Positions 4,631 through 37,588 of a stretch of 44,711 bases of DNA are shown in pieces. Both the position numbers and the translations under genes were made by a program. Position 1 is the first letter of the stretch, and the number at the start of each line of letters is the position of its first letter. This DNA comes from an uncultured Staphylococcaceae bacterium (lineage in GTDB: Bacteria > Bacillota_I > Bacilli_A > RFN20 > CAG-826): contig CAYTKX010000001.1 of the NCBI GenBank assembly GCA_964438495.1, positions 1-44,711 on the forward strand, read 5' to 3'. Under the pieces are notes generated by a model. That model worked only from the letters and a program-made list of their open reading frames with translations, had not been told where the DNA came from and searched no databases.

Positions 4631-5233
4631 ATGGGTTATGTCATCAGTGAAATGTATGTAAGTGAACTTATTGTCGAAAAGTCACGCTTTATTGGTCTTC
4701 TCTGTCCATTAAATAATGAAAATGATTTTGATTTCTACTTTAATGAAGCTAAAAAAACTTTTAAAGACGCGCGTCATTATACTTATGCTTATCGCTTTGG
4801 TAATGTCGAACGGGCGAGTGACGACGGGGAACCGCAAAATACGGCGGGGTTACCACTTTTAAATTTACTGAAGACGAATGACTTTAATAATACGCTTCTT
4901 ATCGTAGTTCGCTATTTTGGCGGTAAAAAACTCGGGGCCGGACGCTTACTCCGCACTTACGTTGAAACAGGGACTAAAGTCATAAGTTTAGCCCATAAAT
5001 TAATCGAAATACCTGCTTTTTGCTATGAAATTATTGTTCCTATTCGTGATTATGACCGCGTTATTCATTATTTAGAAACAAGTGAAAGTGAAGTCATTAA
5101 TAGTGACTTCTCTGACATTGATGTCGTTATCACTGTAAACGTTAGTAAAACTAATGCAGTTGCCTTTGAAAGCATTTATAATATTAAGAGCAAAGAAGAG
5201 TCAGTGTTACTCAAGGAGGATCATAATGAGTGA
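4631..5233 (+). CDS. YigZ / IMPACT family (UPF0029) protein
   Basis: Family hallmarks: KSRFIG, HYTYAYRFG, DDGEPQNTAG.PLL, VVRYFGGKKLGAGRLLRTY. It ends with TGA at 5231-5233. Confidence 0.8.
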   Translation: MGYVISEMYVSELIVEKSRFIGLLCPLNNENDFDFYFNEAKKTFKDARHYTYAYRFGNVERASDDGEPQNTAGLPLLNLLKTNDFNNTLLIVVRYFGGKKLGAGRLLRTYVETGTKVISLAHKLIEIPAFCYEIIVPIRDYDRVIHYLETSESEVINSDFSDIDVVITVNVSKTNAVAFESIYNIKSKEESVLLKEDHNE

Positions 5234-5978
5234 TAAATCAGTAAATAAATTTAGCAATATTCGACGTATTTACGGTATTGTTTCCGGTAAAGGCGGCGTT
5301 GGTAAAAGTTTTGTGACTGCTAGTTTAGCGGTCGAACTTAATAAAATGGGATTTAATGTAGGAATATTAGACGCAGATATTACTGGTCCCTCAATCCCTC
5401 ATATGTTTGGGATAAAAGAAGGCGTCTATGGCGATGAAGAAAAAATTTACCCTGCTGTTAGTAGAACGGGCATTAAAATCATATCATCAGCCCTTTTACT
5501 AAGTGACGGTGAAGATCCCATTATGTGGCGCGGTCCTTTAATTGGTGACTTAGTAACCCAATTTTATACAACTGTTAACTGGGGAGAGCTTGACATCTTA
5601 TTAATTGATTTCCCACCCGGCACAAGTGATGTTGCGCTTAGCAGTTTTCAACAAATTCCAATCAATGGCATTATCTTAGTCACTACTCCCCAACAAATGG
5701 TAAATACGATGGTCAGAAAGACGAAAAAAATGGCCGAAGAGTTAAATGTTGATGTACTTGGCGTAGTTTTAAATATGAGCCATTTTGAAGTACCAAAGAC
5801 TGGTGAACGTCACTATATGTTTGGTGAGGTTAACGTTCAAGAAATCGAAGATGTTTTTCGGCTGCAAACCTTAGGGGCCGTTCCTTTCGTCCCTGGTGAC
5901 GCTAAACTTGCGGATGCCGGAAAAATAGAATCCGTTCATAATTCAATTATTGAAATGGTGGCAAAAGAAATATATTAG
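5226..5978 (+). CDS. Mrp/NBP35 (ApbC-like) P-loop ATPase, Fe-S cluster carrier family
   Basis: Deviant Walker A SGKGGVGKS, DADITGPS, and DILLIDFPPGTSD. I set the start at ATG 5226 (MSDKSVNKF), 6 nt after AAGGAGGA at 5212-5219. It overlaps the YigZ stop. Confidence 0.85.
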   Translation: MSDKSVNKFSNIRRIYGIVSGKGGVGKSFVTASLAVELNKMGFNVGILDADITGPSIPHMFGIKEGVYGDEEKIYPAVSRTGIKIISSALLLSDGEDPIMWRGPLIGDLVTQFYTTVNWGELDILLIDFPPGTSDVALSSFQQIPINGIILVTTPQQMVNTMVRKTKKMAEELNVDVLGVVLNMSHFEVPKTGERHYMFGEVNVQEIEDVFRLQTLGAVPFVPGDAKLADAGKIESVHNSIIEMVAKEIY

Positions 5979-5988
5979 GAGGCAGAAC

Positions 5989-7200
5989 ATGCATATTTTT
6001 AAAGATCGGCGGAACCGACTAACCCAGAAAATGGAAGACAATAGTGCCTTAATACTTTTTAGTGGCACGGAAATTAAAAAAAGCGCCGATAGTGTTTTTG
6101 ACTTTGAAGTAAATCGTAACTTCTACTACTTAACTGGCATTAATCAAGAAAAGTCAATTTTACTTATTACGAAAGTAAATGGTGTGATTAAAGAAACTAT
6201 CTTCACCCTTGATTATGATCCACTTCAAGCCGTGTGGACGGGAAGACGTTACACAAAAGCAGAAGCAATTGCGATAAGTGGCGTTAAAGATCATAAAGTC
6301 ACGAATGAATATGACGATTACGTAAACTCTTTTAGTGATGCAATTAAAACAGTTTATCTTGACCTTGAAGACGGGGTTTTAACAAATACCGGTAAAGAAA
6401 CGAAAAAATACGGGCTTTTACTAAGCGCTCAACATAGTTATACTGTTAAAAACATCTATAACGAAATCGTGAGAATGCGCATGGTTAAAGATGATTATGA
6501 AGTTAAACTTATTAAAGATAGTATTACTTTAACCGCTAAGGCTTTAAAAGAAGCGATAAGTCATATCAAAAGTGGCATGTACGAATATGAAATTGCCGCA
6601 ATCTTTGAATACGGAATTAAAAAACATCACGGTCAATTAGGGTTTAATACGATTGCTGCGAGTGGCAAAAACGGAGTGATTTTACATTATCCGCATTTAG
6701 ACGCTAAACTTCAAGACGGTGATTTATTATTACTTGACTTAGGTGGCCATAACAATATGTATACGGCTGATATTTCGCGTACTGTGCCGATAAACGGTAA
6801 ATTTAGTGAGCTCCAAAAGAAACTTTATGAAATTGTCTTAGGCGCGAATAAAGCAGTCATTGCCTACGCAAAACCTGGCAAAACATTGCTCGATTTACAA
6901 GAATATACGAAAGCGTATTTAACAAAAGAACTTTTAGCCGCTAAACTTATGACTAAAGATGAAGCAATCACCCAATATTATTATCACGGTGTTTCCCACC
7001 ACCTTGGCCTTGATACCCATGACCCAGGGGAAAGAAGTTTACCGTTAGAAAAAGGTAATGTTATTACCGTTGAACCAGGCCTATACTTTGCAAAACATGG
7101 TATTGGGATTCGGGTTGAAGATAATATTTTAATTACGGAAGACGGAGCGATTAATCTATCAATTGAAATTCCAAAAGAAGTAAAGGATATTACGTTTTAA
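5989..7200 (+). CDS. Xaa-Pro aminopeptidase/dipeptidase (peptidase M24B)
   Basis: M24 metal-ligand pattern: DLG...YTADISRT, HGVSHHLGLDTHD, VEPGLY, IRVEDN. I set the start at ATG 5989 (MHIFKDRR), after AGGAGG at 5977-5982. Confidence 0.85.
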   Translation: MHIFKDRRNRLTQKMEDNSALILFSGTEIKKSADSVFDFEVNRNFYYLTGINQEKSILLITKVNGVIKETIFTLDYDPLQAVWTGRRYTKAEAIAISGVKDHKVTNEYDDYVNSFSDAIKTVYLDLEDGVLTNTGKETKKYGLLLSAQHSYTVKNIYNEIVRMRMVKDDYEVKLIKDSITLTAKALKEAISHIKSGMYEYEIAAIFEYGIKKHHGQLGFNTIAASGKNGVILHYPHLDAKLQDGDLLLLDLGGHNNMYTADISRTVPINGKFSELQKKLYEIVLGANKAVIAYAKPGKTLLDLQEYTKAYLTKELLAAKLMTKDEAITQYYYHGVSHHLGLDTHDPGERSLPLEKGNVITVEPGLYFAKHGIGIRVEDNILITEDGAINLSIEIPKEVKDITF

Positions 7201-8690
7201 TGGAAAAATATATTTTAACAATTGATCAAGGCACTACTTCGACACGAGCAATGCTTTTTGATAAAAACGCTGACATTTCGTTTATTGCCCAAGAAGAAGT
7301 AAAATGCTATTACCCAAAACCAGGATACGTCGAGCAAGATGCGATTGAATTATGGCTTAGTGTTTTAAGTGTCATTAATCAAGTGTTAATTAAAGCTAAT
7401 GTTTCGTTTGCAAACATTGATTCAATTGGTATTACTAATCAACGGGAAACGACCATTGTATGGGATAAAAACACGGGTATGCCTGTCGCTCCTGCTATTG
7501 TGTGGCAAAGCCGACAAAGTGCCCATATTTGTAATGAACTTAGTGAATATAAAGATTTAATTCATGAAAAAACTGGACTTTTAATTAACCCCTATTTTAG
7601 CGCTAGTAAGATTCGTTACATTTTAGATCATTTAGAAAACGGCCAAGAACGGGCAGAGCGTGGGGAACTTCTTTTTGGCACGGTTGATACGTGGATTATT
7701 TATAAGTTAACAAATGAGACGAATCATTTTACTGATGTCACAAATGCATCTAGAACAATGTTATATAACATTAACACCCTTGATTATGATGACGAACTAT
7801 TAAAAATATTTAATATCCCAAGAAGTATGTTACCGAAAGTTTTAGCAAGCTCAGACTTCTTTGGCGAAACAACGTTTTTTCATAACCATATGAAAATAAC
7901 CGGTGTAGCTGGTGACCAACAAGCTGCCTTATTTGGGCAAATGTGTTTAAAACCAGGAGACGCTAAAAATACATATGGCACTGGTTGCTTTATGCTTATG
8001 AATATTGGCGATAAACCCGAGTTATCCGAAAACGGATTACTTACAACTATCGCTTGGAAAATTGGTGATAAAGTAACATATGCTTTAGAAGGTAGTGTCT
8101 TTGTTGGTGGGGCCGCTGTGCAGTGGTTACGTGATGAATTAAAACTCTTTAAAGACGCAAAAGAGACGGAAAATGCAGCGTTAAGAGCCCATCAAAATGA
8201 TAATGTTTACTTTGTACCGGCTTTTGTGGGCCTCGGTACTCCTTATTGGGATGATAAAGCACGGGGCGCAATCTTTGGCTTAACACGCGAAGTTAGTGAC
8301 CTAGAAATAACAAGAGCAACCCTCGAAGCAATTGCCTATCAATCGCGCGATGTCTTTGATGTCATGATTAAAGAATCAAAACAAGATCTTAAAGTATTAA
8401 GCGTTGATGGGGGCGCTTCGGTTAATAACTATTTAATGCAGTTTCAGGCTGATATATTAAACACTAGTATCCGTGTTCCGAAGATTTACGAAACAACAAG
8501 TCTTGGGGTTTGCTATTTAGCGGGTTTATACACTGGCTTCTTCTCTTCAATTAAGGCTATTACGCGAATTCATGAATACGCAAGGACTTATACACCAAAG
8601 ATGGATGAAGAATTACGAATTCGTAAATATAACGGTTGGCAAAAAGCCGTGGCTGCTGTGTTAACTTTTAGTAGTGACGCTGAAGAATAA
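7200..8690 (+). CDS. glpK: Glycerol kinase
   Basis: FGGY kinase with N-terminal IDQGTTSTRAMLFD, GITNQRETT.VWD, and the expected 496-aa length. ATG 7200 overlaps the preceding TAA. Confidence 0.95.
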   Translation: MEKYILTIDQGTTSTRAMLFDKNADISFIAQEEVKCYYPKPGYVEQDAIELWLSVLSVINQVLIKANVSFANIDSIGITNQRETTIVWDKNTGMPVAPAIVWQSRQSAHICNELSEYKDLIHEKTGLLINPYFSASKIRYILDHLENGQERAERGELLFGTVDTWIIYKLTNETNHFTDVTNASRTMLYNINTLDYDDELLKIFNIPRSMLPKVLASSDFFGETTFFHNHMKITGVAGDQQAALFGQMCLKPGDAKNTYGTGCFMLMNIGDKPELSENGLLTTIAWKIGDKVTYALEGSVFVGGAAVQWLRDELKLFKDAKETENAALRAHQNDNVYFVPAFVGLGTPYWDDKARGAIFGLTREVSDLEITRATLEAIAYQSRDVFDVMIKESKQDLKVLSVDGGASVNNYLMQFQADILNTSIRVPKIYETTSLGVCYLAGLYTGFFSSIKAITRIHEYARTYTPKMDEELRIRKYNGWQKAVAAVLTFSSDAEE

Positions 8691-8739
8691 ATAATTATTT
8701 ATTTCCCATACAATTAGTGCCTTTGAACGGCTCTATTTT

Positions 8740-8748
8740 TGGTATAAT
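8740..8748 (+). promoter_or_regulatory. Extended -10 (TGGTATAAT) 7 nt upstream of the addB/rexB ATG; possible leaderless transcript
   Basis: Perfect TGnTATAAT at 8740-8748, then taaaaag, then ATG 8756. No SD. Confidence 0.45.
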
Positions 8749-8755
8749 TAAAAAG

Positions 8756-11071
8756 ATGAAAGATTTCGTTAAGTTATTAGAAAAATATGATTATCTTATT
8801 TGTGATTACGCCACTAAAAGTGAAATTTTAACATTGCGGAATGAGTTTCCGTGGCTAAAAATTAAGTTAGTGACCTTTAGCGAAGTAATTGCGATGTTTT
8901 TAGGTAAGCTTGATGAGGAAATTTTGATTGAATTAATCGCTAAATATGATTTTAATTTGGAACACGCAAAAATTATTCAAGAAAACTTAATCTTTCCCCA
9001 CAATAGTTTAATTAACAATAAAACGACTGAGCTAACTAGTTTGCGACGGCTCCTTATTAGTAGTGGATATATAACCCTTGATGAATATGCGTCTTTTGCC
9101 TTCAAAGATAAAAATGTATTAATTCTAGATTATTTGAAGGAACATTCTTTGCTTAAAGAACTTCTTTCTAACGCTGGCGCTAACATTAGTTATCTTAGTA
9201 AAGATTATAACTATAAACCTAAACTTTATGCTTTTAAATCTGATATTGAAGAGGTCTATTATGTTTTAAATAGTATTGCTGCTTTGTTAAATAAAGGCGT
9301 TTTAGCACAAAATATCGTTGTTTTGCGACCTGAAACAAGTTATTTAAACTTACTTTATAACTTAGCACCACAGTTTAATATAGCCTTCCAAAATGAAGGT
9401 AGACCACTTCTTTCTTTTCCAGAAGTTAAAGATATTATAAAGTCACTTGAGAATAACGAAGTGACAGTCAGTGAATTACTTGAGGATGGTGATAAAGAAG
9501 AATTATCACCAGTACTTATTACTTTTTATAATGCTCTTTCGACAATTGATTTTAATAAGTTACCAGAAAAGCATCACATTGAATATATTAAAAGTGTTTT
9601 AAATAGAACGAATTTTAGTGTTACGGTAAATGACGGAATTAAGATTGTTAATGAGTTTCCGCAATATGAATTTAAGGATAAGCACTACTTCTTTCTTGAT
9701 TTTTCACAAACTACAGCTCCAGTCGTACCGCGGGCTTCTCGCTTATTAACCGCTGAAGAAATAATATCGCTTGGGATGTTGCCGATTGAAAAAGAAGCTT
9801 TAATGAATGAAACGCAAATGGTAAAGGCTTTTAAAAATCTTAAAAACTTAACTTTAAGTTATTCCTATATTGCCAATAATGAAAAAAATGATGTCTCACC
9901 GCTTGCAAATGTTTTAGAACTAGAACAAGAACTAATTACGATGCCAACAAGCTTTTATAGTCAAGAGTATATTAACTATTTAACTGGGCTTTATAAAGAT
10001 CAATATCGTTACTACAGCATTATTAGTGATGAATTAAACTTATTAGAGCACGCAAATCCAAATAATAATGATTTTAAGAAGTTTGATTTCCGCTTCAAAG
10101 GGATTAATTATGAACATAAGTTACCACTGAAACTTTCGTTTTCAAGTTATGATGATTACGTTAACTTACCATTTGACTATTTTGCAAAATATATTTTAAA
10201 GATTGTCGAAGGTGGAAATTATGCACTTGACTACGGTAATTTTGTGCATAAGGTCTTAGAAGAAAGTATAGACGAAGAATCATTTGAACTTAATTTTCAC
10301 CACTACATTGATAAATATGATTTTACTGTCAAAGATAAGTTCTTTGTCATGCATCAAAAACCAATTGTTAAAGCAAACTTCTTCTTTTTACAAGATTACC
10401 TTTATAGGTCAAACCCAAAAGAAGTTATTAAAGAAGAATATATATCAATTCCCTTAAATGAAAATGTAGTAATTTCAGGAAAAGTAGATCGTATTCATCT
10501 CTATGAAAAAAATGATAAAAAGTATTTAGTTGTTTTTGATTATAAAACGGGAGAAGCCCATATGCGAACTACTGATATTGAAAAAGGGTTTGATTTTCAA
10601 CTCCCAATCTATAGTGTGCTTGCAAATAGTTATGAACGATTTAAAGATTATGAAACTGTTGGTTTAGCAATGAATAGCTTGAAATTAGGATCTTTTCTAT
10701 TCCAAGATGAAAATTATTTCAACACCATCATTGAAAAAGACCTGAAGTTTAAGGCATTACTTAAAAATGATGTGTCGGCCATGAGTGCTATTGATCCAAC
10801 ATATACGCAGAGTGAATTTTATAGTGGATTAAAATTGCTAAAAAGCGGTTCACTCCCCAAAGAAAAGGGAAAAATTCCGTTTGAAGAACTAAAAGAATTC
10901 GCCGAAACAAAAATCAATGAAGTTGCAACGCGTATTCTCGCTAATGATTTTATTGTTGAAAAAACTTATATTACCGAAAAACGTAAAAGTGGTATGTATT
11001 CTAAATATGTAAATATTAGTTATATCAATAGTGGAGTTTTTGAAAGTGACGAAGGAGAAGATGATGAGTAA
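8756..11071 (+). CDS. addB: Helicase-nuclease complex subunit B, RexB type (PD-(D/E)XK nuclease; inactive helicase-like N-terminus)
   Basis: It sits immediately upstream of addA and overlaps it. The C-terminal nuclease motifs are GKVDRIHL...VVFDYKTGE...QLPIYSVL. I see no Walker A and only one Cys. I set the start at ATG 8756 (MKDFVKLL); the GTG at 8717 in the track lies upstream of the -10 box. Confidence 0.75.
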   Translation: MKDFVKLLEKYDYLICDYATKSEILTLRNEFPWLKIKLVTFSEVIAMFLGKLDEEILIELIAKYDFNLEHAKIIQENLIFPHNSLINNKTTELTSLRRLLISSGYITLDEYASFAFKDKNVLILDYLKEHSLLKELLSNAGANISYLSKDYNYKPKLYAFKSDIEEVYYVLNSIAALLNKGVLAQNIVVLRPETSYLNLLYNLAPQFNIAFQNEGRPLLSFPEVKDIIKSLENNEVTVSELLEDGDKEELSPVLITFYNALSTIDFNKLPEKHHIEYIKSVLNRTNFSVTVNDGIKIVNEFPQYEFKDKHYFFLDFSQTTAPVVPRASRLLTAEEIISLGMLPIEKEALMNETQMVKAFKNLKNLTLSYSYIANNEKNDVSPLANVLELEQELITMPTSFYSQEYINYLTGLYKDQYRYYSIISDELNLLEHANPNNNDFKKFDFRFKGINYEHKLPLKLSFSSYDDYVNLPFDYFAKYILKIVEGGNYALDYGNFVHKVLEESIDEESFELNFHHYIDKYDFTVKDKFFVMHQKPIVKANFFFLQDYLYRSNPKEVIKEEYISIPLNENVVISGKVDRIHLYEKNDKKYLVVFDYKTGEAHMRTTDIEKGFDFQLPIYSVLANSYERFKDYETVGLAMNSLKLGSFLFQDENYFNTIIEKDLKFKALLKNDVSAMSAIDPTYTQSEFYSGLKLLKSGSLPKEKGKIPFEELKEFAETKINEVATRILANDFIVEKTYITEKRKSGMYSKYVNISYINSGVFESDEGEDDE

Positions 11072-14000
11072 GAAAGGTTTTACTTGGAGCCCTAAACAGC
11101 TAGAAGCTTTATCGCTTGATAAAGTAAATATGCTCGTTTCAGCTGGTGCTGGTAGCGGTAAAACCGCCGTTTTAACCGAGCGTGTTATCCGGATTATTAA
11201 AGATAAGAATGTTCCACTAGAATCAATACTTGTATTAACCTTTACTGATCTTGGGGCTAAAGAATTTCGCGACCGTATTAAAAAAGAATTGAGTAAAGAT
11301 CCCGCCTTAGCGCCTAAAGTTTACGCAGTGGATAACGCTGACATTATGACGTTTGATGCCTATGCTTTAAAACTTTTAAAGAGTTATGGCTACCGCTTAA
11401 ACTTTAAAACCGACATTGTTAACATTGATGAATCAATTGAAGCCATTTTCATTAAAGAAGCGTTTGATGCTCTATTACTTGAAGAATATGAAAACCCTTC
11501 TCTAGCGTTTAATGATATCGCAAAACGATTCTTAGTGAAAGACGATAAAGTACTTTTTGAGATGGTCACTAACATTTTAAAAGCCGCAAATCTTACGCTT
11601 AACCCACCAAAATTTTTAAGAGATTTTATAGATAACAACTACACACTTGATAACTTTAATTTTTTAGTAAAAGAGCTTGATCATTATGTTATATATTTGT
11701 TACGAAATATTGCTTCTCAAGTTAAGCAATTAAGTGATGAAAAACACGTTGAAAGATATAATGAGTTTTTAGAGGAGTTTGGCACAGTCCTCACCTTTGA
11801 GCACTATATGAGTCGTAAAGAAAAATTAAAGAAACCTCGCGTTCCTAACAAAAGTTTTGAAAACTTTCCCGAAGACGAATCAATTGGAAAGACGCTTAAA
11901 AGCCTATATGACAAATTGGATCGTCTTGAATACCTTATTTCTGTTAGTAATATGTACACAATTTTCAGTAAAGAGCGTGAATATGCAAAGTTTTTATTGG
12001 ATTTAGTGGCAAAGATATATGACATTGTTAAAGCACGAAAAGAAGCAATGAATGCCTTCACCTTTAGTGATGTCGCTCGTAATGCATATGCCCTTATCTC
12101 TTTACCGGACATTCAAAAAGAACTACAAAACAAATATGAATACATCCTTGTTGATGAGTATCAAGATACAAGTGATATCCAAGAAGATTTCTTACAACAA
12201 ATTGTCGATAATAACATGTATATGGTGGGCGATATTAAACAAAGTATCTATGCTTTTAGAAACGCTAATGTGTACATCTTTAAAGATAAATACACAAACT
12301 TTTCTAAAGGAATTGGTGGAAGGTTAATTGACTTAAATGATAACTATCGTTCTCGCAGTGAAGTTTTAACTTCGATTAACGACATTCTTAGTGAAATCAT
12401 GACCGAAGAATATGGCGGCGCTAAATATAAGCAAGAACACGTCATTGGTTATGGAAACAAAAAGTACGATGAAAACTTTGTGCTTGGTCAAGATGTTGGC
12501 CTTAAAGTTATTAATTATTCCTTAGATGATATTAACGAAGCGCTTGAAAATAGTGATGGAACAGAAAGTGTTAAATTAACTGAAGGCGAAATAGAAGCCC
12601 AAATTATCATTAAAGACATTCAAGAGCGCATTAGTCGCGGCGAACAAGTTTATGACGCAGATGACAAAAAAATGCGCCCAGCGAAATATAAAGATTTTGC
12701 AATACTTGTTTCACGAAAGAATGAGTTTCCGACTATTGAAAAGACTTTCTTAGATGCCGGAATCCCGATTTTTGTCGATGATGATAAAACTGATAGAAGC
12801 GACGTAGTTTTTATTGCGCTAGTTGCCCTTCTTCAAATATATGTTTCTTACACTAAAGAAGATTATCCAAATACTTATGAATACCGTTTCGCGGTCGCAA
12901 GTTTTCTAAGGTCGTTCGTAAATAATTATAGTGATCAACAACTTCTTGATTTAATGGGTTATGATAACACTGATTTTTCTAGTGACCCACTTCTGCAAAA
13001 GATTAAGCATATCGCTAAGACAATGCAAGATTACCCAGCGCAAGATATAATTGATACGCTTGTGAAAACATTTGATTTATACGGGGCGATTTACTATTTA
13101 GGTGATGTCGCACAAAATACAATGAAATTAACTGGGAAATTAACCCAAATTGAAAACTTAGCAAAGCTTGGGCTTAATGTTGAAGAAATTCTTAATGTTA
13201 TGCAATTTGAGAACGCTGATGATAAAGATATTTCCTTAAGACGTCCGCGTACAGTGGATAATGCGGTTACTTTAATGACGATTTATCGTTCTAAAGGTTT
13301 AGAATTTCCAATTGTTTATTACATTGATTTAAAACATAACTATTACACTGTTGAAAGAAGAACAAAGTTTAAAATTGTTGCCCCTTATGGTATTTCATTT
13401 CCAAATGTAAAAGAAAAACCAAGCCTAAACAGCGTCATCAGTGAAACGAAGAAGTTTAAGGAGATACTTTCCGAACGGATTAGGCTCCTTTATGTTGCCT
13501 TAACGAGAGCGCGGGAATTAATGGTAGTTATTCACGATTTAGATAAAGAAAAAGATTTAAACGAGATTCCTTTTGCAGATTTAAAAAACTTTAAAGAAAT
13601 ATTATTGCAATCTCCCACTTATCGTGAACATTTAGAAATAATTGATTTTACGCCACTTAATTTGCAAAAAGCTAAGGAAAAACTTAAACCTTCAAGTAAA
13701 AATAAGATTATTATTAATACCCCAACCTATTCCTTTAAGGAAACAAAAACTGAGGTTAAACTAAAAGAAAAGTTTGATGTACCACCGCACATTTTAAAGA
13801 TGGGTACATTATTACACCGCCAAATTGAACTTTATGACTTTAAAACAAAAAAGCTTGATTATATTGATAATAGAGAACACCGGGACCACATTAAAAAGAT
13901 CTTTACACTTCCATTATTTGTGAATGCTACAAATGAGAATGTATATCGTGAATATTCTTATATAGATGAAGCCACTAATGAAACATATGTTATTGACTTT

Positions 14001-14189
14001 TTCATCCTTGGGGCGCGCACTATTACTTTAATTGACTTTAAACTTTTAAATATTGATGTTGAAGAATATGACTTACAAGTGAAAAGATATGCAAAACACT
14101 TACAAAAAGTGTTTAATAAGAATGTTGATGCTTATTTATTAAGTATAATTAATAAAAACTGGCGAAAGGTAGAAGTGAATGGCGAATAA
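11061..14189 (+). CDS. addA: ATP-dependent helicase/nuclease subunit A (UvrD-like helicase plus C-terminal nuclease)
   Basis: Walker A GAGSGKTAVLTER, VDEYQDT, YRSKGLEF, VALTRARE, and C-terminal nuclease-like HRQIE...VIDFF...LIDFK...Y..Q. The start is ATG 11061/11064, after GAAGGAGAAG. It overlaps the addB stop. Confidence 0.9.
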   Translation: MMSKKGFTWSPKQLEALSLDKVNMLVSAGAGSGKTAVLTERVIRIIKDKNVPLESILVLTFTDLGAKEFRDRIKKELSKDPALAPKVYAVDNADIMTFDAYALKLLKSYGYRLNFKTDIVNIDESIEAIFIKEAFDALLLEEYENPSLAFNDIAKRFLVKDDKVLFEMVTNILKAANLTLNPPKFLRDFIDNNYTLDNFNFLVKELDHYVIYLLRNIASQVKQLSDEKHVERYNEFLEEFGTVLTFEHYMSRKEKLKKPRVPNKSFENFPEDESIGKTLKSLYDKLDRLEYLISVSNMYTIFSKEREYAKFLLDLVAKIYDIVKARKEAMNAFTFSDVARNAYALISLPDIQKELQNKYEYILVDEYQDTSDIQEDFLQQIVDNNMYMVGDIKQSIYAFRNANVYIFKDKYTNFSKGIGGRLIDLNDNYRSRSEVLTSINDILSEIMTEEYGGAKYKQEHVIGYGNKKYDENFVLGQDVGLKVINYSLDDINEALENSDGTESVKLTEGEIEAQIIIKDIQERISRGEQVYDADDKKMRPAKYKDFAILVSRKNEFPTIEKTFLDAGIPIFVDDDKTDRSDVVFIALVALLQIYVSYTKEDYPNTYEYRFAVASFLRSFVNNYSDQQLLDLMGYDNTDFSSDPLLQKIKHIAKTMQDYPAQDIIDTLVKTFDLYGAIYYLGDVAQNTMKLTGKLTQIENLAKLGLNVEEILNVMQFENADDKDISLRRPRTVDNAVTLMTIYRSKGLEFPIVYYIDLKHNYYTVERRTKFKIVAPYGISFPNVKEKPSLNSVISETKKFKEILSERIRLLYVALTRARELMVVIHDLDKEKDLNEIPFADLKNFKEILLQSPTYREHLEIIDFTPLNLQKAKEKLKPSSKNKIIINTPTYSFKETKTEVKLKEKFDVPPHILKMGTLLHRQIELYDFKTKKLDYIDNREHRDHIKKIFTLPLFVNATNENVYREYSYIDEATNETYVIDFFILGARTITLIDFKLLNIDVEEYDLQVKRYAKHLQKVFNKNVDAYLLSIINKNWRKVEVNGE

Positions 14190-15270
14190 AATAGAACACC
14201 GTCCCATAGATTATAGTGATTTCATGAAAATCCTTAACTTTTACGGACTTAAAGACCGTGATGATTTTGATTTAATGTATGAAATTTATGAACACATTAT
14301 TATGACGGCCAATATTCATCAAAAAACATTCTCTGCCCTTCCGAGTGCCCCGTTAGAACATCCTCGTTTAATCTTATTTTTAATTAATGATTATATGTAT
14401 CGCTTTGCTAATATGACAAAAGAAGAAATAAGTGCAGCGCTGGATGACGAATTATTTTACGCCAAAGTCATTAATGTTATTATCGATAAATATGGTGGCG
14501 AATCATATTTTAAATATGATCAAGGTAGTTTTTTAAATCGTTATTCGATGGAAATATCAACACTTAATGTTTATATAAACTTTATTTTACTAAAATTACG
14601 GCAGCTACAAGAAAATAGTGGCCCCGATAAGTTGTATCTTGATTTACTTAAAAGTGCCTTTTCCCTGTGCCAGACGATTATTGAACTGCTCGTCCATGGT
14701 TTTGAAAGAGATGCTTTAAGCTCATGGCGGTCGTTACATGAACTCGAAGCTGCGCTTGTCTTACTTGAAGATCAAAAACTTATTGGTCATTATCAGCAAC
14801 ATATTATTTATAACGCCGCCTTTAATAAACTCTTAGCGAAAGAAGAAGCAGATGAAGTCTTTGTTTTACTTAAAAAAGATTTAAAAGACCGGGGACTAAA
14901 AAGTAAAGATATGCGACGCTTTATTGAGTATGGATGGATTAGTTATCATGAAGATTTTGATCCTAATATTCATAAATTTAATTTCCGTGATGGCGTGGAA
15001 ACACTTGCAAAACTTACCGATTCGCGTGAAACATATCAAGTCGCGAGTGAAGTGGCGCACAGTTCCCCTATTATGCTTTTCACTAACCGTCGCTATTTCT
15101 TAAAACTAACACTTATTCATCTATATCGTTCATTTATTTTAATTGAAAATCTATTTGCGAATAATTATATTTCCCGCAGTGATCCGATGGAAAAAGAACT
15201 ATATTTAGCGATTCGAAAATTTTACCTTGAAGATATAAACTTTGTGTACAATCAAACATTAGAAATATAA
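14179..15270 (+). CDS. Hypothetical helical protein, distant paralog of 30956-32029 (possibly DUF5677-like; unverified)
   Basis: ATG 14179 lies inside the last codons of addA (gtgaATGGCGAATAA), an 11-nt overlap. It shares a colinear motif series with the 357-aa protein at 30956-32029: DA...WRSL.E....L.LLE, then GW, then VH. A bidirectional terminator follows. Confidence 0.6.
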   Translation: MANKIEHRPIDYSDFMKILNFYGLKDRDDFDLMYEIYEHIIMTANIHQKTFSALPSAPLEHPRLILFLINDYMYRFANMTKEEISAALDDELFYAKVINVIIDKYGGESYFKYDQGSFLNRYSMEISTLNVYINFILLKLRQLQENSGPDKLYLDLLKSAFSLCQTIIELLVHGFERDALSSWRSLHELEAALVLLEDQKLIGHYQQHIIYNAAFNKLLAKEEADEVFVLLKKDLKDRGLKSKDMRRFIEYGWISYHEDFDPNIHKFNFRDGVETLAKLTDSRETYQVASEVAHSSPIMLFTNRRYFLKLTLIHLYRSFILIENLFANNYISRSDPMEKELYLAIRKFYLEDINFVYNQTLEI

Positions 15271-15275
15271 AAAAA

Positions 15276-15302
15276 GCCTACTTAACTTAAAGTAGGCCTT
15301 TT
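15276..15302. terminator. Bidirectional Rho-independent terminator between convergent genes
   Basis: GCCTACTT (15276-15283), a 6-nt loop, then AAGTAGGC (15290-15297). It is flanked by an A-run upstream and CTTTT downstream. Confidence 0.75.
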
Positions 15303-15318
15303 AATAATTTTTAATCTA

Positions 15319-16977
15319 TTATACGTCGTGGAAGCAACTACCGCCGATAAATTCACGGAGTAAGGAGTTACTTGGTACCCATTCTTCATCCATGTCAAGG
15401 AAGTATTTTAACATCCGAATTAACCGTTCGGCTAAGGGGAAAAATTCACTCTTATAATCAAATTCTTGAAGTAGTGGTAATGCATGTTTTTTCATGACCG
15501 CTAATTCGTAAGATAATAAGGAATTGTAGACGTAATCTGCTTCTTCCTGGGTGTCATAAATCCATTTAAATTCACCCGCGCGGACACTTGGCCACATGTT
15601 CATTGTTTCTTGGGCACTCGCGTTGCGATATTTATTATCACGGACAATACGGCGTAATAAACGTAAGTCAGTTAAGCTAATTGGGTTATGATCATCAATA
15701 TTAATTTGTGCTTGTGGTGAAATATAAATCTTATATTTTTGATGCTTTGGAATATAGCTTGTAAGTTGTTCGTTTAAAGCATGAATTCCTTCAATAATAA
15801 TAGGTTGATTTGCTTTAACTTGAAGTTTACGTCCCGGCACTCTTTTACCGATTTTAAAGTCGAATTTTGGTAATTGAACTTCTTCACCGTTAATTAAGTC
15901 AAGCATATTTTGGTTGAATAATTCAATGTCGAGCGCATAGATTGATTCTAAGTCAAAGTTGCCATTTTCATCACGGGGCGCTAGTTCACGGGGTAAATAG
16001 TAATCATCGATTGATAAACGAATAGCGTTTAATCCTCGACTCATAAGTTCAGTGCGTAAGCGGTTAGCAAATGTTGTTTTACCAGAACTACTTGGTCCCG
16101 CAATACAAATTAAACGAATGTCATCACTATCTTCCATGATGCGTTGGCCAAGTTCACTTAACATTTGATAATGTTTTGCTTCTGCTAAGTTAATTAAGTC
16201 AACAATTTGCCCTTTTTCGATGTAAGAGTTAATGTGCGCGACACTGTCAAGGTTTGTAAGCTTCGCCCAGTTATGACTTGCTTTAAGGGCTTTACCAAAC
16301 ATGGGGGCATCTTTAAATTCTGGGATTTCGCCTTTTGTTTCGCTGCGTGGATATTGTAAAAGCATCCCTGGTGAATAAGGACGAATTAAGAAACTCTTTA
16401 AATAACCAGTACTTGGGACCATATAACCATACATATAGTTTTGGTATCCATCACATTCGTAAACGTGTACTTTTGGTTCTGGCCGATATTGTAAGATTTC
16501 TAATTTATCGTTATAGCCTAGTTTTTCATAAAGTTCATAAGCTTCGGCGATTGTAATTTTGCTGCGATTAAGTTTTAAGTCAGCGTCTACAATTGCCCGC
16601 ATTTCTTTTTGTAGTTTTTCAACGAGTAAACGATCGACAGTCACCCCTTTATTTGTAACTTGAATAAAGATGGAACGTGAAACGTTATAAGAAAAACGCA
16701 CATTAAGTTCAGGGCGAATTCTTTTCATTGCCATCGCGGCAACAAAGCGTAAAGACGTTTGATAAATCCGAATGCCTTCGCTATCATCAAGCGATCTAAC
16801 TTCTAAGGTGGCGTCTTCCGTTAACATATACGTTAATTCACGGACACGGCCATTGACTAATACACAAATATAGTCACGGTTGGGGCCGACAACATCGAGA
16901 ACACTTGTCGGGGTGTTATGTGTGGTTGTTTTGTTGTTAAAAGTAACCTTAAAACTTCCTTGTTTCTTTTTTTCCAT
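15319..16977 (-). CDS. Uridine/cytidine kinase-like protein with N-terminal TGS/ThrRS-like domains
   Basis: P-loop GPSSSGKTT followed by a uridine-kinase-like core (IIIEGIHALN, LRLLRRIVRD..R). The N-terminal ~270 aa resembles the TGS plus second-additional domains of ThrRS. I set the start at ATG 16977 (MEKKKQ), 7 nt after AAGGAG. Confidence 0.75.
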   Translation of the reverse strand: MEKKKQGSFKVTFNNKTTTHNTPTSVLDVVGPNRDYICVLVNGRVRELTYMLTEDATLEVRSLDDSEGIRIYQTSLRFVAAMAMKRIRPELNVRFSYNVSRSIFIQVTNKGVTVDRLLVEKLQKEMRAIVDADLKLNRSKITIAEAYELYEKLGYNDKLEILQYRPEPKVHVYECDGYQNYMYGYMVPSTGYLKSFLIRPYSPGMLLQYPRSETKGEIPEFKDAPMFGKALKASHNWAKLTNLDSVAHINSYIEKGQIVDLINLAEAKHYQMLSELGQRIMEDSDDIRLICIAGPSSSGKTTFANRLRTELMSRGLNAIRLSIDDYYLPRELAPRDENGNFDLESIYALDIELFNQNMLDLINGEEVQLPKFDFKIGKRVPGRKLQVKANQPIIIEGIHALNEQLTSYIPKHQKYKIYISPQAQINIDDHNPISLTDLRLLRRIVRDNKYRNASAQETMNMWPSVRAGEFKWIYDTQEEADYVYNSLLSYELAVMKKHALPLLQEFDYKSEFFPLAERLIRMLKYFLDMDEEWVPSNSLLREFIGGSCFHDV

Positions 16978-17016
16978 AAAAACTCCTTTATCAATGGACA
17001 TTAAATACTTGAGAAT

Positions 17017-30036: not shown

Positions 30037-30516
30037 ATGACGATAAGGTTATATAGACGATTATTATATATAATAAAACTAGATTTAACTTGTAGTTTTT
30101 CTGCTTATTATCAATGGTGCAGCATGATGAATATATTACTTATCATGAAGAGAAATCTATATTTTACGTCACTTTTATTACAAGAACGAGGTATTCGCCT
30201 CGCGATTGGTAGCTCAAGTAAAAACGCGCGTACTATTTTAGAAAAGATTGAATTGCTCCACTTTTTTGAAGTCATAAGTGACGGTATTAATTTAGTTAAC
30301 CCTAAACCGGACCCCGAAGTCTTTTTAAAAGCGTCCGCCGCCCTATTTTTAAAACCGGAAGATTGTATTGTCGTTGAAGACGCAAAAGCCGGTATTGACG
30401 CCGCGCTTGCCGGAGGCTTTATCGCTGTTGGGATGGGCGACGCCTATACATATGAAAAAAATACTTATAGTATTAAAGAATTAAAAGAATTACTTTTATT
30501 AGTGCGTACGCTTTAA
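30037..30516 (+). pseudogene. Degenerate/truncated HAD-superfamily beta-phosphoglucomutase-like gene
   Basis: The C-terminal ~110 aa is a good HAD core (RLAIGSSSKNA...NPKPDPEVFLKA...VVEDAKAGIDAALAGGF.AVGMG). The N-terminus is AT-rich, lacks the DxDG(V/T) nucleophile motif, and is ~60 aa too short for the cap domain. Confidence 0.55.
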
Positions 30517-30959
30517 AGTTTTAAACTTGGAAATTGTTTTTTTATTTCATCAAGGCTCCAATATTTTTCGACCCGTTCTTTCATCTCTTTATAGATGAGT
30601 CTTTTTGGGTCATGGGCTAAATAACGTTCATCACCCTTACGGGTTACAAAGCGGATGCTTAGTTTTTTATCGCTATATGCTTCATCAATATAGATAATGT
30701 CTTTAAAAGGATAATATAAAGTATTACGGCCCTTATGATGGACAATTTCATGCTTTGTTATTTCGTAATAACTATTCTTATAGCCGATTATTAAATAAAT
30801 TACTGTCGTTACCGTCCAAATAAGAAGCACTAAATAATGATATAAAGTCGGGGGAAAAGTAATGCCGGTAATTAAATAGAAAATAATCGACACTAAAAGA
30901 TAGATCGGTAAATAAATAAGGAGTAGACCTTTAAAACTTGTGTATATTTTTTTATTCAT
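30513..30959 (-). CDS. Hypothetical 2-TM protein with a C-terminal bacterial PH-like (bPH/YdbS-like) domain
   Basis: 148 aa with two N-terminal TM helices, then YYEITKHEIVHHKGRNTLYYPFKDIIYID...LSIRFVTRKG, which resembles membrane-anchored bPH domains. Its ATG overlaps the upstream gene's stop (ATGA). Confidence 0.5.
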   Translation of the reverse strand: MNKKIYTSFKGLLLIYLPIYLLVSIIFYLITGITFPPTLYHYLVLLIWTVTTVIYLIIGYKNSYYEITKHEIVHHKGRNTLYYPFKDIIYIDEAYSDKKLSIRFVTRKGDERYLAHDPKRLIYKEMKERVEKYWSLDEIKKQFPSLKL

Positions 30960-32029
30960 GAATTTTGAATATCGCGACTAAAATCATTAAAGCGACCACT
31001 GAAGGCGCTAATGAATGTGCGAATTCCTCCTTCCAACTTTTTCGCGTCATTTAAGTCATTCGTAAAGTGTTTGCTAATAAGAACACGCACTAACTCATAT
31101 ATTTTAAAATAAAGCGTTAATAAATAGCGATCAAAGTCAATGCCAATGCGTAAATCTTCAGCACTTATTAAATATTCATGAACAAAAAGACTTGCAAAGG
31201 CGTAATGCGGATATAAATCCCCTAAATTAACCTTTTCTAATAGCGTTTTTAATGAATATTCTTCGCCTGGACCAATTAATTCCCCGGCCCAGCCAAAGCG
31301 TTCAGCAATATGCCACGGTAAATTGCCGCGTCCTGCATGCTTCAAAGCTTCTTTACTTTTACTTATTTTATCTTTCGTACTAGCGTTTAATAGTCGCGCA
31401 CGCGTGAGCGCGATAATCCGTCTTTCATTATACTTACCACTAAGGTGGGGGTTCCGTTCTAAAATTAAAAGGTTAGTCGTTGTTTCAAGTAAACTTCGCC
31501 ATATAATAAAAGCATCATTATTAAACTCACGTTCTAAAAGCATAATCCCGCTTATTAATTCATTAAAGAAGCGCTCGGTCATCATATATAAAATATTGGT
31601 CGCTAAATCTTTATCTTTCATGTCGACAGCTTTAAAACGGTGATAACGACGATTAATTAAATTTTCAAACTCCATAATGATTGGATCAATGATTTGGTCA
31701 CGGGTGAAGATGTGGTCAGGATCATTTTTAGCTTCCTCACTTTTAATGACCCCTTTAATTAAGTCGTTAATGTGATCGTTACCTTTAAAGTAAGTTTTTA
31801 AGTATTGCGGGCTACTTGATTTAATTTTATGGTTATGGCGCATGATGACGCGGTTCGCGAAAAGGAAGAAGTCTTCTTTTTTTGCTCCAAACTGTTTGCG
31901 ATATTCGGGAAAGGCATTTTTGATGGCATTCCGAAAGTAGTCAACCTTCTCATCACTATTTGGTGAGATCTGAATATTATCTTTTAAAAGGGCGCGAACT
32001 TGATCGCGAGATAGTTGATAATTAGCCAC
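30956..32029 (-). CDS. Hypothetical helical protein, distant paralog of 14179-15270 (possibly DUF5677-like; unverified)
   Basis: GTG start at 32029, 6 nt after AAGGAGA (rc of 32036-32042). 357 aa. The motif series NDAFIIWRSLLETTTNLLILE ... FGWAGE ... LFVHEY is colinear with the 14179 protein. It is divergent from jetA. Confidence 0.6.
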   Translation of the reverse strand: MANYQLSRDQVRALLKDNIQISPNSDEKVDYFRNAIKNAFPEYRKQFGAKKEDFFLFANRVIMRHNHKIKSSSPQYLKTYFKGNDHINDLIKGVIKSEEAKNDPDHIFTRDQIIDPIIMEFENLINRRYHRFKAVDMKDKDLATNILYMMTERFFNELISGIMLLEREFNNDAFIIWRSLLETTTNLLILERNPHLSGKYNERRIIALTRARLLNASTKDKISKSKEALKHAGRGNLPWHIAERFGWAGELIGPGEEYSLKTLLEKVNLGDLYPHYAFASLFVHEYLISAEDLRIGIDFDRYLLTLYFKIYELVRVLISKHFTNDLNDAKKLEGGIRTFISAFSGRFNDFSRDIQNS

Positions 32030-32135: not shown

Positions 32136-33569
32136 ATGAAGGAGAAATTTTTTTTGAGCCTGTTTACCATTATTCCGAATAACTTTTTTTCAATATTAGC
32201 AAGTAAAAATAAAGAGATTTACGCTGAAGCTCTGCTCCTTTTACATCGCTCGATTGAAGATAACGATTTATTCATTAAAAAGAATGAATTCACTCGTAAT
32301 TTAAAAGAGCGGTTAAGTGAATTATCGCTCACTGTTGATATTGCGGCCGAAGAAGAACTTGAAGAAGACGAAGTCGTCGACCATAGTGATAAGGCTAGTT
32401 TTATTGTGCGTCGGTTAGAAGAATGCGGGTGGATTGATGTTGAAGTTAATCCCGAAAACTTTGAAGAATATATTGCGTTACCAAGTTACAGCATCAATAT
32501 GCTTGCCCTTATTAATAGTTTAGTAAAAGAAAGCACTGCTGAATACGTTAGTCTTGTCCACGCAACATATAGTGAACTTGCGCTTGAAGACGAGATGCGC
32601 GACGAATTTATGTATGCAACTTTAGTGCGTGCTTTTGAAAACACGAAAGCTCTTAACGTGGAACTTATTACCCTGGCCCATAGCATTCGTATTTTCCAAA
32701 ATCGCCTCGGCAAAGTATTTAGCACGAACAATATTTTAAGTGATTATTTTGATCACTATAAAACAAGGGTTAGTGACCGCTATTATCACCCCCTTAAAAC
32801 GTTTGATAGTGTCGCTAAATTTAAGCGGCCAATCTTACAAATCTTACAAAAGTGGCTCTATGACGATGAAATTAGAACCCAACTTGTCACCCAAGCTTTA
32901 ATGTGGAGTCGCCATAAAGATAAAGGAGCCGCTGAAGCCGATATTATTAATAAGATTAACTATATTAGTGATATGTATGAAAGAGTGAATGATACGATTG
33001 CGCAAATCGATCAAAAACATCATGAATACACAAAAGCAAGTGCCACAAAAATCTTATATTTAAATAGTGCTGATAAATCGATTAAAGGTCATCTTGACTT
33101 TATCTTTAAAACATACGCTGAAACCTTTAGTAAAGGAGCAAGTGTTAGCCCTATATTAAATGGCCTTGCTGAATCTTTAAAATTCAATCGCCACGGTTAT
33201 GTTAGTCCTGATAGTATCACCTTACCAATCGTGCGTGAATTAAGACGTGATTCCTTACCCCTTACCTTAACTGACTTTGATGATGTTCGCGATGCTTTAA
33301 TGGAACACTTTTTAGAACAAACGAGCAGTCAATATAGTAATGATGAAATCTTTGACTTTATGGACTTAGCGTTTGGTGATGATAGTGAGGTGCATATTAA
33401 AGATATTCCCTTACCAACATTTGAAGCATTTTTGCTTTTAATCTTAGCGACGATTAAAACAAATGACGAACAATGTTTTTATATCGTTGAAACAGATCCT
33501 GGGAAAGTAAGTAGCCACGGCTACCGCTTACCAAACTTACGCTTTATTAGAAAGGAGCTAGCCCTCTAA
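32136..33569 (+). CDS. jetA: JetA/MksF-like (kleisin-type) subunit of a Wadjet/MksBEF-type SMC complex
   Basis: ~475 aa, first gene of a coupled trio with the size and order of jetA-jetB-jetC. It has an acidic linker (AAEEELEEDEVVD) and a winged-helix-like stretch (FIVRRLEECGWIDVE). The assignment rests mainly on context. The start may be TTG 32154, 9 nt after AAGGAG at 32139-32144, rather than ATG 32136. Confidence 0.6.
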   Translation: MKEKFFLSLFTIIPNNFFSILASKNKEIYAEALLLLHRSIEDNDLFIKKNEFTRNLKERLSELSLTVDIAAEEELEEDEVVDHSDKASFIVRRLEECGWIDVEVNPENFEEYIALPSYSINMLALINSLVKESTAEYVSLVHATYSELALEDEMRDEFMYATLVRAFENTKALNVELITLAHSIRIFQNRLGKVFSTNNILSDYFDHYKTRVSDRYYHPLKTFDSVAKFKRPILQILQKWLYDDEIRTQLVTQALMWSRHKDKGAAEADIINKINYISDMYERVNDTIAQIDQKHHEYTKASATKILYLNSADKSIKGHLDFIFKTYAETFSKGASVSPILNGLAESLKFNRHGYVSPDSITLPIVRELRRDSLPLTLTDFDDVRDALMEHFLEQTSSQYSNDEIFDFMDLAFGDDSEVHIKDIPLPTFEAFLLLILATIKTNDEQCFYIVETDPGKVSSHGYRLPNLRFIRKELAL

Positions 33570-34204
33570 TGTTTGAAGAAACCATTTTAAAAATGACGCG
33601 CGCTGATCAAGAAGCGTTCGCCAAAGCTATTAACCAATTATTATTAACAAGTTTTATCGTTCGTGATGAATTTGATCGCCGCGAGAAAACGATTAAGATT
33701 AACCCAACATACCGGTTTATTGAACGCCATTTTGATTTAATTAACGATTATTTAAGTTATAGCGGATGGCGTGTTGATAAAGATTTAATTTTAGGAGTGT
33801 TTAGCCTCGTCAATGAATATGACCATAATCGTTTACGCTTTGACCGCGAAGTAAGCTTAATTCTTTTTGTCTTACGCTTAATTTATGAAGAAGAGAAAAA
33901 AGAAGGGGGCCACATTGGCGATTCTATTTATTTAACGACCCCCCTTGTTATGAAAGTAATGCATGATCGCGGCATATTAATTCCGAATAAAAAGTTAACC
34001 GGTCGCTTAGTGGGACGGGCGCTTAAAGAAATCGCTAACCACAATATTATTGCTCGTGTTTCGGGAACATATGACGAAGGAAACGTGACGTTCTACCTTT
34101 TACCGTCAATTACCTTTGCCGTTGATAACGATAAAATTGTCGCCATTAGTCAAGCTTTAGAAAAACTAGCGCTCCGAGATAGCGGGGAAGGAAGTGACGC
34201 ATAA
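33569..34204 (+). CDS. jetB: JetB/MksE-like subunit (DUF4194-like)
   Basis: 211 aa. TAATG overlap with jetA. The pattern FAKAINQLLL.SFIV...Y.FIERHFDLINDYL...GW.V..D...GVF.L...RL.F...S.ILFVLRLIY.EE matches my recollection of DUF4194. Confidence 0.65.
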   Translation: MFEETILKMTRADQEAFAKAINQLLLTSFIVRDEFDRREKTIKINPTYRFIERHFDLINDYLSYSGWRVDKDLILGVFSLVNEYDHNRLRFDREVSLILFVLRLIYEEEKKEGGHIGDSIYLTTPLVMKVMHDRGILIPNKKLTGRLVGRALKEIANHNIIARVSGTYDEGNVTFYLLPSITFAVDNDKIVAISQALEKLALRDSGEGSDA

Positions 34205-37578: not shown

Positions 37579-37588
37579 AAAGGAACTT

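Follow-up and report, generated by a model that had tools for sequence, protein, structure and literature searches.

Introduction

Among the described families and systems, those closest to the locus treated here are the Pfam family DUF5677 (PF18928), for which no function is described in the literature that we searched; the genes behind addA in model Firmicutes, such as sbcD-sbcC, which we take to follow addB-addA in Bacillus subtilis; the Wadjet system (JetABCD/MksBEFG); and guards of the retron Ec48 type. Double-strand-end-processing machines are often inhibited by phages, and retron Ec48 is an example of a guard of RecBCD. In the present study, we analysed a stretch of 44,711 nucleotides (nt) from an uncultured Staphylococcaceae bacterium (GTDB lineage Bacteria; Bacillota_I; Bacilli_A; RFN20; CAG-826; assembly GCA_964438495.1, contig CAYTKX010000001.1, positions 1 to 44,711), which is called the window below. 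It encodes two DUF5677 proteins, and our subject is the gene at 14179-15270 on the plus strand, which encodes a protein of 363 amino acids (aa) directly behind an addB-addA pair. We consider it reasonably probable that this is a vertically inherited core-genome protein, probably an enzyme, which works independently of AddAB. In a large uncultured clade the gene belongs to the syntenic core, as a single copy under strong constraint; at its own locus it does not depend on addAB, and the all-alpha fold predicted for its product has no match among solved structures.

The locus shares one or more traits with each of these systems and departs from each of them. Compared with generic DUF5677 proteins, the two window proteins are long (~360 aa), being extended by ~150 helical residues at the N-terminus and by two long helices at the C-terminus, and the addA-linked subfamily adds the invariant motifs LKSKD, IEYGW, KFNFRDG and SEVAHSSP; the addA-linked gene is part of a syntenic core, whereas the generic members examined lie in accessory or defence-like neighbourhoods. 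As in model Firmicutes, a co-directional gene stands directly behind addB-addA, but its product has no similarity to SbcD, SbcC or any nuclease or ATPase family, and it survives the deletion of addB-addA. The likeness to Wadjet is that the second DUF5677 gene adjoins a type I jetA in divergent orientation; however, its product matches no Jet model, the adjacency is limited to one clade and the local system is without a recognisable JetD. With retron Ec48-type guards the locus shares a gene without known function linked to a double-strand-end-processing machine, but it has no reverse transcriptase, non-coding RNA or effector domain, it is core and not mobile, and it outlives AddAB at the locus.

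Results and Discussion

The ATG of the 363-aa open reading frame (ORF) lies at 14179 and the addA stop codon (TAA) at 14187-14189, so that the two genes overlap by 11 nt (14179-14189); direct reading of the sequence places GAAAGG, a Shine-Dalgarno-like motif, 9 nt 5' of the start. A terminator scan found a two-way terminator-like hairpin at 15271-15302, which has 13 pairs when scored for the minus strand and 8 when scored for the plus strand, and which is common to this ORF and to the convergent PRK-family gene. An earlier reading of the letters alone (the sequence-only reading) had described both the start within the end of addA and the bidirectional terminator, and we found both as described. 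Because of the start/stop overlap, co-transcription of the DUF5677 gene with addA and translational coupling of the two are very probable in this genome. The same reading had gone further and regarded the protein as wired to the AddAB machine, and this second step is the one on which the comparison of loci bears.

Full-length homologs of the 363-aa protein form 51 clusters (354-393 aa), and relatives are encoded in 342 species-representative genomes. The locus survey took the best-scoring 80 of these 342 genomes, which is a biased sample; AddA, AddB, the FGGY kinase and the PRK gene were mapped onto the surveyed loci, of which 78 were evaluable. All carriers in the survey are uncultured Bacilli, in assemblies labelled Tenericutes, Erysipelotrichaceae, Mollicutes or Candidatus Enteromonas, and the addA-linked subfamily belongs specifically to a large low-GC clade of uncultured Bacilli. 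Hundreds of uncultured Bacilli species from gut, rumen and digesters carry this DUF5677 core gene. The linkage to addA that the survey had been proposed to look for does recur, in relatives down to about 30% identity, and DUF5677 relatives at 51%, 31% and 32% identity each stand directly behind an AddB-AddA pair. AddA is immediately upstream in 28/78 loci (gap -29 to +52 nt) and lies behind a spacer of 350-2300 nt, made up of other sequence or genes, in a further 7/78. In 30/78 loci the FGGY kinase gene is immediately upstream (gap 2-80 nt) with no addB or addA in the locus, and in 9/78 addBA-less loci it stands behind a spacer of 370-800 nt; the upstream state was undetermined in 4/78. Altogether, addB-addA is upstream in 35/78 loci and absent at the locus in 39/78. 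A convergent PRK gene follows downstream in most of the 80 loci, and since it is constant the conserved slot can be written as FGGY-[addB-addA]-DUF5677-<PRK. In one subclade, an ORF of ~215 aa without Pfam match stands between addA and the DUF5677 gene and ends at, or overlaps, the DUF5677 start (L027:7333-7986, L037 about 7348-8004, L047:1865-2524, L060:1589-2233).

The nine spaced addBA-less loci carry traces of the missing genes. Their spacer ORFs match the first ~150 residues of the AddB proteins encoded in addBA-containing loci (tblastn, E 1e-17 to 1e-5), and three distinct types of such AddB stubs occur among the nine loci. The stub ORFs (92-264 aa) lie between the FGGY kinase and DUF5677 genes (L029:7338-7880, L039:3437-3991, L050:7399-7944, L052:5783-6577, L074:5772-6050, L082:3180-3782, L085:7155-7796, L091:7588-7863). 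Their similarity to AddB marks them as what is left of addB-addA after in-place deletion on at least three separate occasions. Thus addB-addA was removed in place more than once, with DUF5677 kept. We also considered the opposite order, in which the addBA-less state would be ancestral and addBA inserted later, and rejected it because AddB N-terminal stubs persist at the site. In the DUF5677 protein tree (neighbour-joining, no bootstrap), the addBA-plus and addBA-minus states are interspersed.

The DUF5677 protein shows no sign of decay where addBA is gone. The positions invariant in the subfamily are 95-100% conserved in the 39 addBA-less lineages, and mean column conservation is 0.63 in addBA-less against 0.58 in addBA-plus lineages. 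A dedicated AddAB factor would be expected to show relaxed constraint or loss without its partner, and neither was seen; systematic co-occurrence with addA and addB would also be expected, and half of the loci did not show it. Rocha et al. 2005 (PMC1193525) report that RecBCD/AddAB is missing from many bacterial genomes and that, among recombination genes, only those encoding stable complexes cluster systematically. With 39/78 loci keeping DUF5677 without addBA, nine of them with stubs, and with the residues invariant, the supposed wiring to AddAB was not borne out. The coupling to addA is real here and old in the clade, and it is dispensable for the function of the DUF5677 gene. Since addBA-deleted relatives keep the gene intact in the same slot, the coupling reflects operon position and not functional dependence, and the protein is most probably no dedicated component of the AddAB DNA-repair machine.

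The arrangement of the window agrees with this reading. Seven co-directional genes fill 4631-15270 with gaps of -80 to +26 nt, in the order UPF0029, Mrp/ParA-type NTPase, M24 peptidase, FGGY kinase, addB, addA and DUF5677. The first four are housekeeping genes by Pfam (UPF0029, Mrp/ParA-type NTPase, M24 aminopeptidase and FGGY sugar kinase; 4631-8690, plus strand), with intergenic distances of -80, -29, -1 and +26 nt. They are followed by an AddB-like protein of 784 aa (8717-11071, plus strand; Pfam PDDEXK_1 at residues 473-643) and an AddA-like helicase-nuclease of 1052 aa (11031-14189, plus strand; Pfam UvrD-helicase and UvrD_C), whose genes overlap by 41 nt. The C-terminus of AddA, as read from the translation, carries VIDFF...LIDFKL...QVKRY, that is the RecB-type nuclease pattern D...D-x-K...Q-x3-Y, and these domains and motifs identify the ORFs at 8717-11071 and 11031-14189 as an AddB/AddA-type pair. 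The DUF5677 gene had been read as third in the addB-addA operon; it is co-directional behind addB-addA as that supposes, but it is actually the last of the seven genes. The array 4631-15270 is a functionally mixed housekeeping operon and not a dedicated addBA operon, and because the DUF5677 gene is the last of seven, co-transcription is not specific to addA. The gene is the terminal cistron of this mixed operon, in our reading inherited vertically in the clade, and after deletion of addB-addA it was kept intact directly behind the FGGY kinase gene. In compact genomes, where unrelated genes are packed together, adjacency within an operon says little about function, even when a start overlaps a stop.

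The same loci bear on the alternative that the protein is an accessory factor of AddAB, which would bind or regulate the complex in end resection, Chi response or RecA loading, with the coupling to addA setting the stoichiometry. The overlap of its start codon with the addA stop and the tight spacing in the 28 loci with AddA directly upstream would suit such a factor. Some observations also weigh against the independence that we prefer. Adjacency to addA persists over deep divergence (about 27-30% AddA identity) and is kept in L005, where an SNF2 helicase gene precedes addB, and from these two facts an ancestral functional tie is possible; relocated addAB may exist elsewhere in the addBA-less genomes, as the stubs mark deletion at this site only; and the idea of an enzyme is drawn from the conservation pattern alone, with no relative of known function found. 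Against an accessory factor, half of the loci are without addBA at the site while DUF5677 and its invariant residues are intact, 7 loci have 350-2300 nt inserted between addA and the DUF5677 gene, the operon includes four unrelated housekeeping genes, and the genes behind stable recombination complexes are as a rule inherited together (PMC1193525). Nor do the nearest outgroup relatives, P0109 and P0099, lie near addAB. We therefore hold an AddAB accessory factor to be unlikely.

The surroundings of these two outgroups are of some interest in themselves. P0109 is surrounded by HTH regulators and small ORFs without known function. P0099 (L099-L101, around 8001-12690) is encoded two genes upstream of a gene for a 923-aa GmrSD_N, type IV restriction-like protein, with an HNH gene and many small ORFs close by; this setting is defence-island-like, unlike the core-genome setting in the window.

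The second DUF5677-family protein of the window (357 aa; 30956-32029, minus strand; PF18928), which belongs to a jet-adjacent subfamily and whose homologs form 20 clusters, had been named a paralog of the first on the strength of colinear motifs. All of these motifs were located, in order. Both proteins begin with MAN, the 357-aa protein from a GTG start; ERDALSSWRSLHELEAALVLLED at residues 176-198 of the 363-aa protein corresponds to NNDAFIIWRSLLETTTNLLILER at residues 170-192 of the 357-aa protein, YGW (251-253) to FGW (245-247), and VAHSS (292-296) to FVHEY (282-286). The identity, estimated by eye at about a fifth, is 18% in the family alignment. BLASTP between the two gave E=1e-4 with 31% identity over 87 aa. 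An alignment of 44 relatives of the 363-aa protein (A1) was compared by hhalign with one of 20 relatives of the 357-aa protein (A2), and the profile-profile similarity that had been called for was found, with E=2.2e-4 over 218 columns, though with a probability of only 45%. Against PF18928, whose gathering cutoff is 27.1 bits, the proteins score 38.6 bits (residues 155-300 of the 14179-15270 product) and 48.6 bits (30956-32029). Both carry the signature G-[FY]-x-[DE]-[GA]-A...W-R-x-L-x-E, then [YF]-G-W, then Y-x3-S-x3-H, which is also present in the generic DUF5677 members P0092-P0110, and N134, L170, W183, R184, E188, G252, W253, Y286, S290 and H294 are invariant in both subfamilies in the family alignment. 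Both therefore belong to DUF5677, a family already catalogued, and are homologous.

The A1 profile gives generic DUF5677 proteins up to 87 bits against 9-19 bits for the jet-adjacent subfamily, and the A2 profile gives generic members 35-44 bits against 4-24 bits for the addA-linked subfamily. An exhaustive HMMER search with A2 over 1.84 billion representative proteins returned 32 matches at E<=0.001, its own subfamily first and generic DUF5677 proteins next, and a further word-indexed homolog search with the merged alignment found members of both known subfamilies only. Because each profile ranks generic DUF5677 above the other subfamily, the two are not a close paralog pair, and the profile scores rather make the second copy a distant relative with the same architecture. 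Thus the word paralog holds for homology, with a shared Pfam domain and 16 helices, and not for a close pair; in the same way the family is undescribed as to function, but it was already catalogued as PF18928. One could also suppose that the ORF is misannotated or arose by chance, and that the likeness of the two proteins is compositional noise of an AT-rich genome; the low pairwise identity and the low hhalign probability would speak for this view. Full-length homologs with dozens of invariant residues, spread over hundreds of genomes, two confident AlphaFold2 models and scores above the Pfam gathering threshold for both proteins refute it, and we give it practically no credit. One generic member that the exhaustive search returned, P0100 (511 aa), carries a C-terminal pyroglutamyl peptidase (Peptidase_C15) fragment, the sole domain fusion seen in the family.

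AlphaFold2 predicted an all-alpha structure of 16 helices for both the 363-aa protein (pLDDT 92.5, pTM 0.78) and the 357-aa protein (pLDDT 87.5, pTM 0.81), and the helices of the two models correspond one-to-one over the whole length, so the proposed structural comparison also came out in favour of a common layout. Foldseek searches with both models against the PDB and with the 363-aa model against the viral BFVD gave a best E of about 0.7 with TM-scores about <=0.3. PDB sequence-profile searches with A1 and with A3 gave no match, and searches of NCBIfam, PADLOC and PHROGs gave nothing informative for DUF5677 proteins, with a weak match of both to phrog_27456, a phage protein family without known function. 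In PADLOC-DB v2 there was no meaningful defence-model match (best LeoB, E=0.011, for the 357-aa protein), and no Jet model matched either protein. No match to either was found by tblastn among the PLSDB plasmids.

In the 44-sequence alignment of the addA-linked subfamily, 42 columns are invariant, among them a polar-rich set that comprises D103-K104, W183-R184, H187-E188, E190, H208, K241-S-K-D244, E250-Y-G-W253, K266, N268-F-R270, G272, S290-E291, H294, S296-P297 and E323. The polar residues N134, R184, E188, Y286, S290 and H294 are invariant family-wide, and H187, E190, H208, K241-S-K-D244, K266-x-N-F-R-D-G272 and E291 are specific to the addA-linked subfamily. With low confidence, we take the conserved polar set for a putative active or ligand-binding site rather than a scaffold. 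Its His/Glu pairs and basic loops would be in keeping with the binding of a metal ion and of an anionic or phosphorylated substrate, and the protein may be a soluble all-alpha enzyme or ligand-binding protein and not a structural subunit; both suggestions are likewise of low confidence.

Three more specific candidates were tried and rejected. The addA-linked subfamily has a median pI of 6.0 with a net charge of -6, and the second subfamily is basic (median 9.0); a DNA mimic that inhibits AddAB was rejected because the protein is only mildly acidic and its paralog basic. An HEPN-like RNase, suggested by the helical fold and by a conserved Arg and His, was rejected because no R-x(4-6)-H is found in one helix and the His helix is Y-x3-S-x3-H without Arg; R184 stands only 3 residues from H187, which the second subfamily does not conserve, and no HEPN family matched in Pfam at E<=1. 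Replacement of a lost AddA nuclease by DUF5677 was rejected because AddA keeps the RecB-type motifs and DUF5677 is all-helical.

The second copy had been placed beside an SMC-type complex, and its neighbours are as described. It lies 106 nt from jetA, in divergent orientation, and the genes of the type I Wadjet components JetA, JetB and JetC follow on the plus strand (32136-37578; Pfam JetA, DUF4194 and SbcC/AAA_29; PADLOC JetA1, JetB1 and JetC1). On its other side lies a gene for a 148-aa protein (30513-30959, minus strand), whose start and the DUF5677 stop overlap by 4 nt; in translation, the protein has two N-terminal transmembrane (TM) helices and a soluble tail of ~85 aa. This small protein has no family match, and counterparts of 149-155 aa occupy the same position in the loci of relatives (L007-L012); the second DUF5677 copy and the small membrane protein are a two-gene unit of their own. 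In the JetD position stands an ORF for a 284-aa protein (37589-38443, plus strand), in translation with two N-terminal TM helices. It has no PADLOC or Pfam match and is not recognisable as JetD; the possibility of a divergent JetD was rejected on the two TM helices and the lack of a JetD, Pfam or PADLOC match, and by PADLOC and Pfam the local type I JetABC (32136-38443) is without a recognisable JetD nuclease. An ORF of 285-290 aa likewise follows jetC in relatives (L007, L010, L012).

A recurrent linkage of the family to jet loci had also been proposed, and it was not confirmed. The pair of DUF5677 and two-TM genes, the divergent jetABC and the ~285-aa ORF occur together in relatives down to 41% identity, and in every jet-adjacent case the flanks are identical: rpe, rsgA and kinase genes border the block at one end, glgC at the opposite end. 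Because the flanks are identical, the adjacency is attributable to shared ancestry in one clade and is no independent recurrence. Two distant full-length relatives lie away from jet: P0082, from the same metagenome-assembled genome (MAG) as L021, behind an ABC-F ATPase gene, and P0085 with an unknown gene on one side and a P-type ATPase gene on the other. The jet adjacency of the second copy is a clade-specific arrangement. Overall, the idea of one family wired to two DNA machines finds partial support only. The jet block itself has a fixed place in the core genome, bordered by the rpe/rsgA region and by glgC, which is unusual for a defence system, and it might have a chromosomal, condensin-like role.

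These neighbourhoods bring up a role in defence, in which the two proteins would be abortive-infection-like sensors or effectors, one copy monitoring AddAB and the other working with Wadjet and a small membrane effector. DUF5677 is enriched beside serine recombinases, which serve as markers of defence islands in Bacillota (PMC12632615), both proteins weakly match the phage family phrog_27456, the near-outgroup P0099 has the GmrSD_N and HNH genes beside it, and the second copy is coupled to a two-TM protein next to jetABC. However, the addA-linked gene is single-copy, syntenic and core in hundreds of species, while defence genes are patchy and mobile; a meaningful PADLOC match is lacking; and a DUF5677 gene tested for phage defence in Enterococcus faecalis was not among the five active candidates (PMC12632615). 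The jet adjacency is confined to the one syntenic clade and absent in more distant relatives, and a guard is not expected to outlive the complex that it guards, yet the gene persists without addBA. We regard such a role as improbable.

A wider possibility, which we rate as more speculative still and very improbable, is that DUF5677 proteins would be nucleic-acid enzymes of a new fold, the addA branch being a former AddAB partner that later acted alone at DNA ends, and the jet branch with its two-TM partner being the missing effector of the JetD-less JetABC. Action alone at DNA ends would explain the retention of the gene after addAB deletion. The support for this idea consists of the adjacencies and the conserved polar residue cluster, and of nothing else.

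What had been supposed to be a new AddAB partner becomes a better-defined problem, and the overall importance is modest. An activity for this protein, if found, would annotate a whole Pfam DUF, and the repeated in-place deletion of addB-addA with AddB stubs is a natural experiment on the loss of double-strand-break processing in genome reduction.

Some observations on neighbouring genes may be added. The AddB (784 aa) and AddA (1052 aa) of the window are much shorter than their Bacillus subtilis counterparts, which have about 1166 and 1232 aa, respectively, and the AddA nuclease motifs sit in a compact C-terminal module that Pfam PDDEXK_1 misses. The convergent neighbour of the 363-aa ORF (15319-17001, minus strand; Pfam PRK) encodes a PRK/uridine-kinase-family protein of 560 aa, in which the PRK/uridine kinase match covers only the C-terminal ~200 residues and the N-terminal ~290 are without match. 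Near the second DUF5677 copy, the match of a 159-aa ORF (30037-30516, plus strand) to beta-phosphoglucomutase-type HAD hydrolases is limited to their C-terminal half (profile positions 101-187 of 187), and this ORF is probably a truncated gene remnant; in the equivalent interval, relatives carry rpmB, the gene for ribosomal protein L28.

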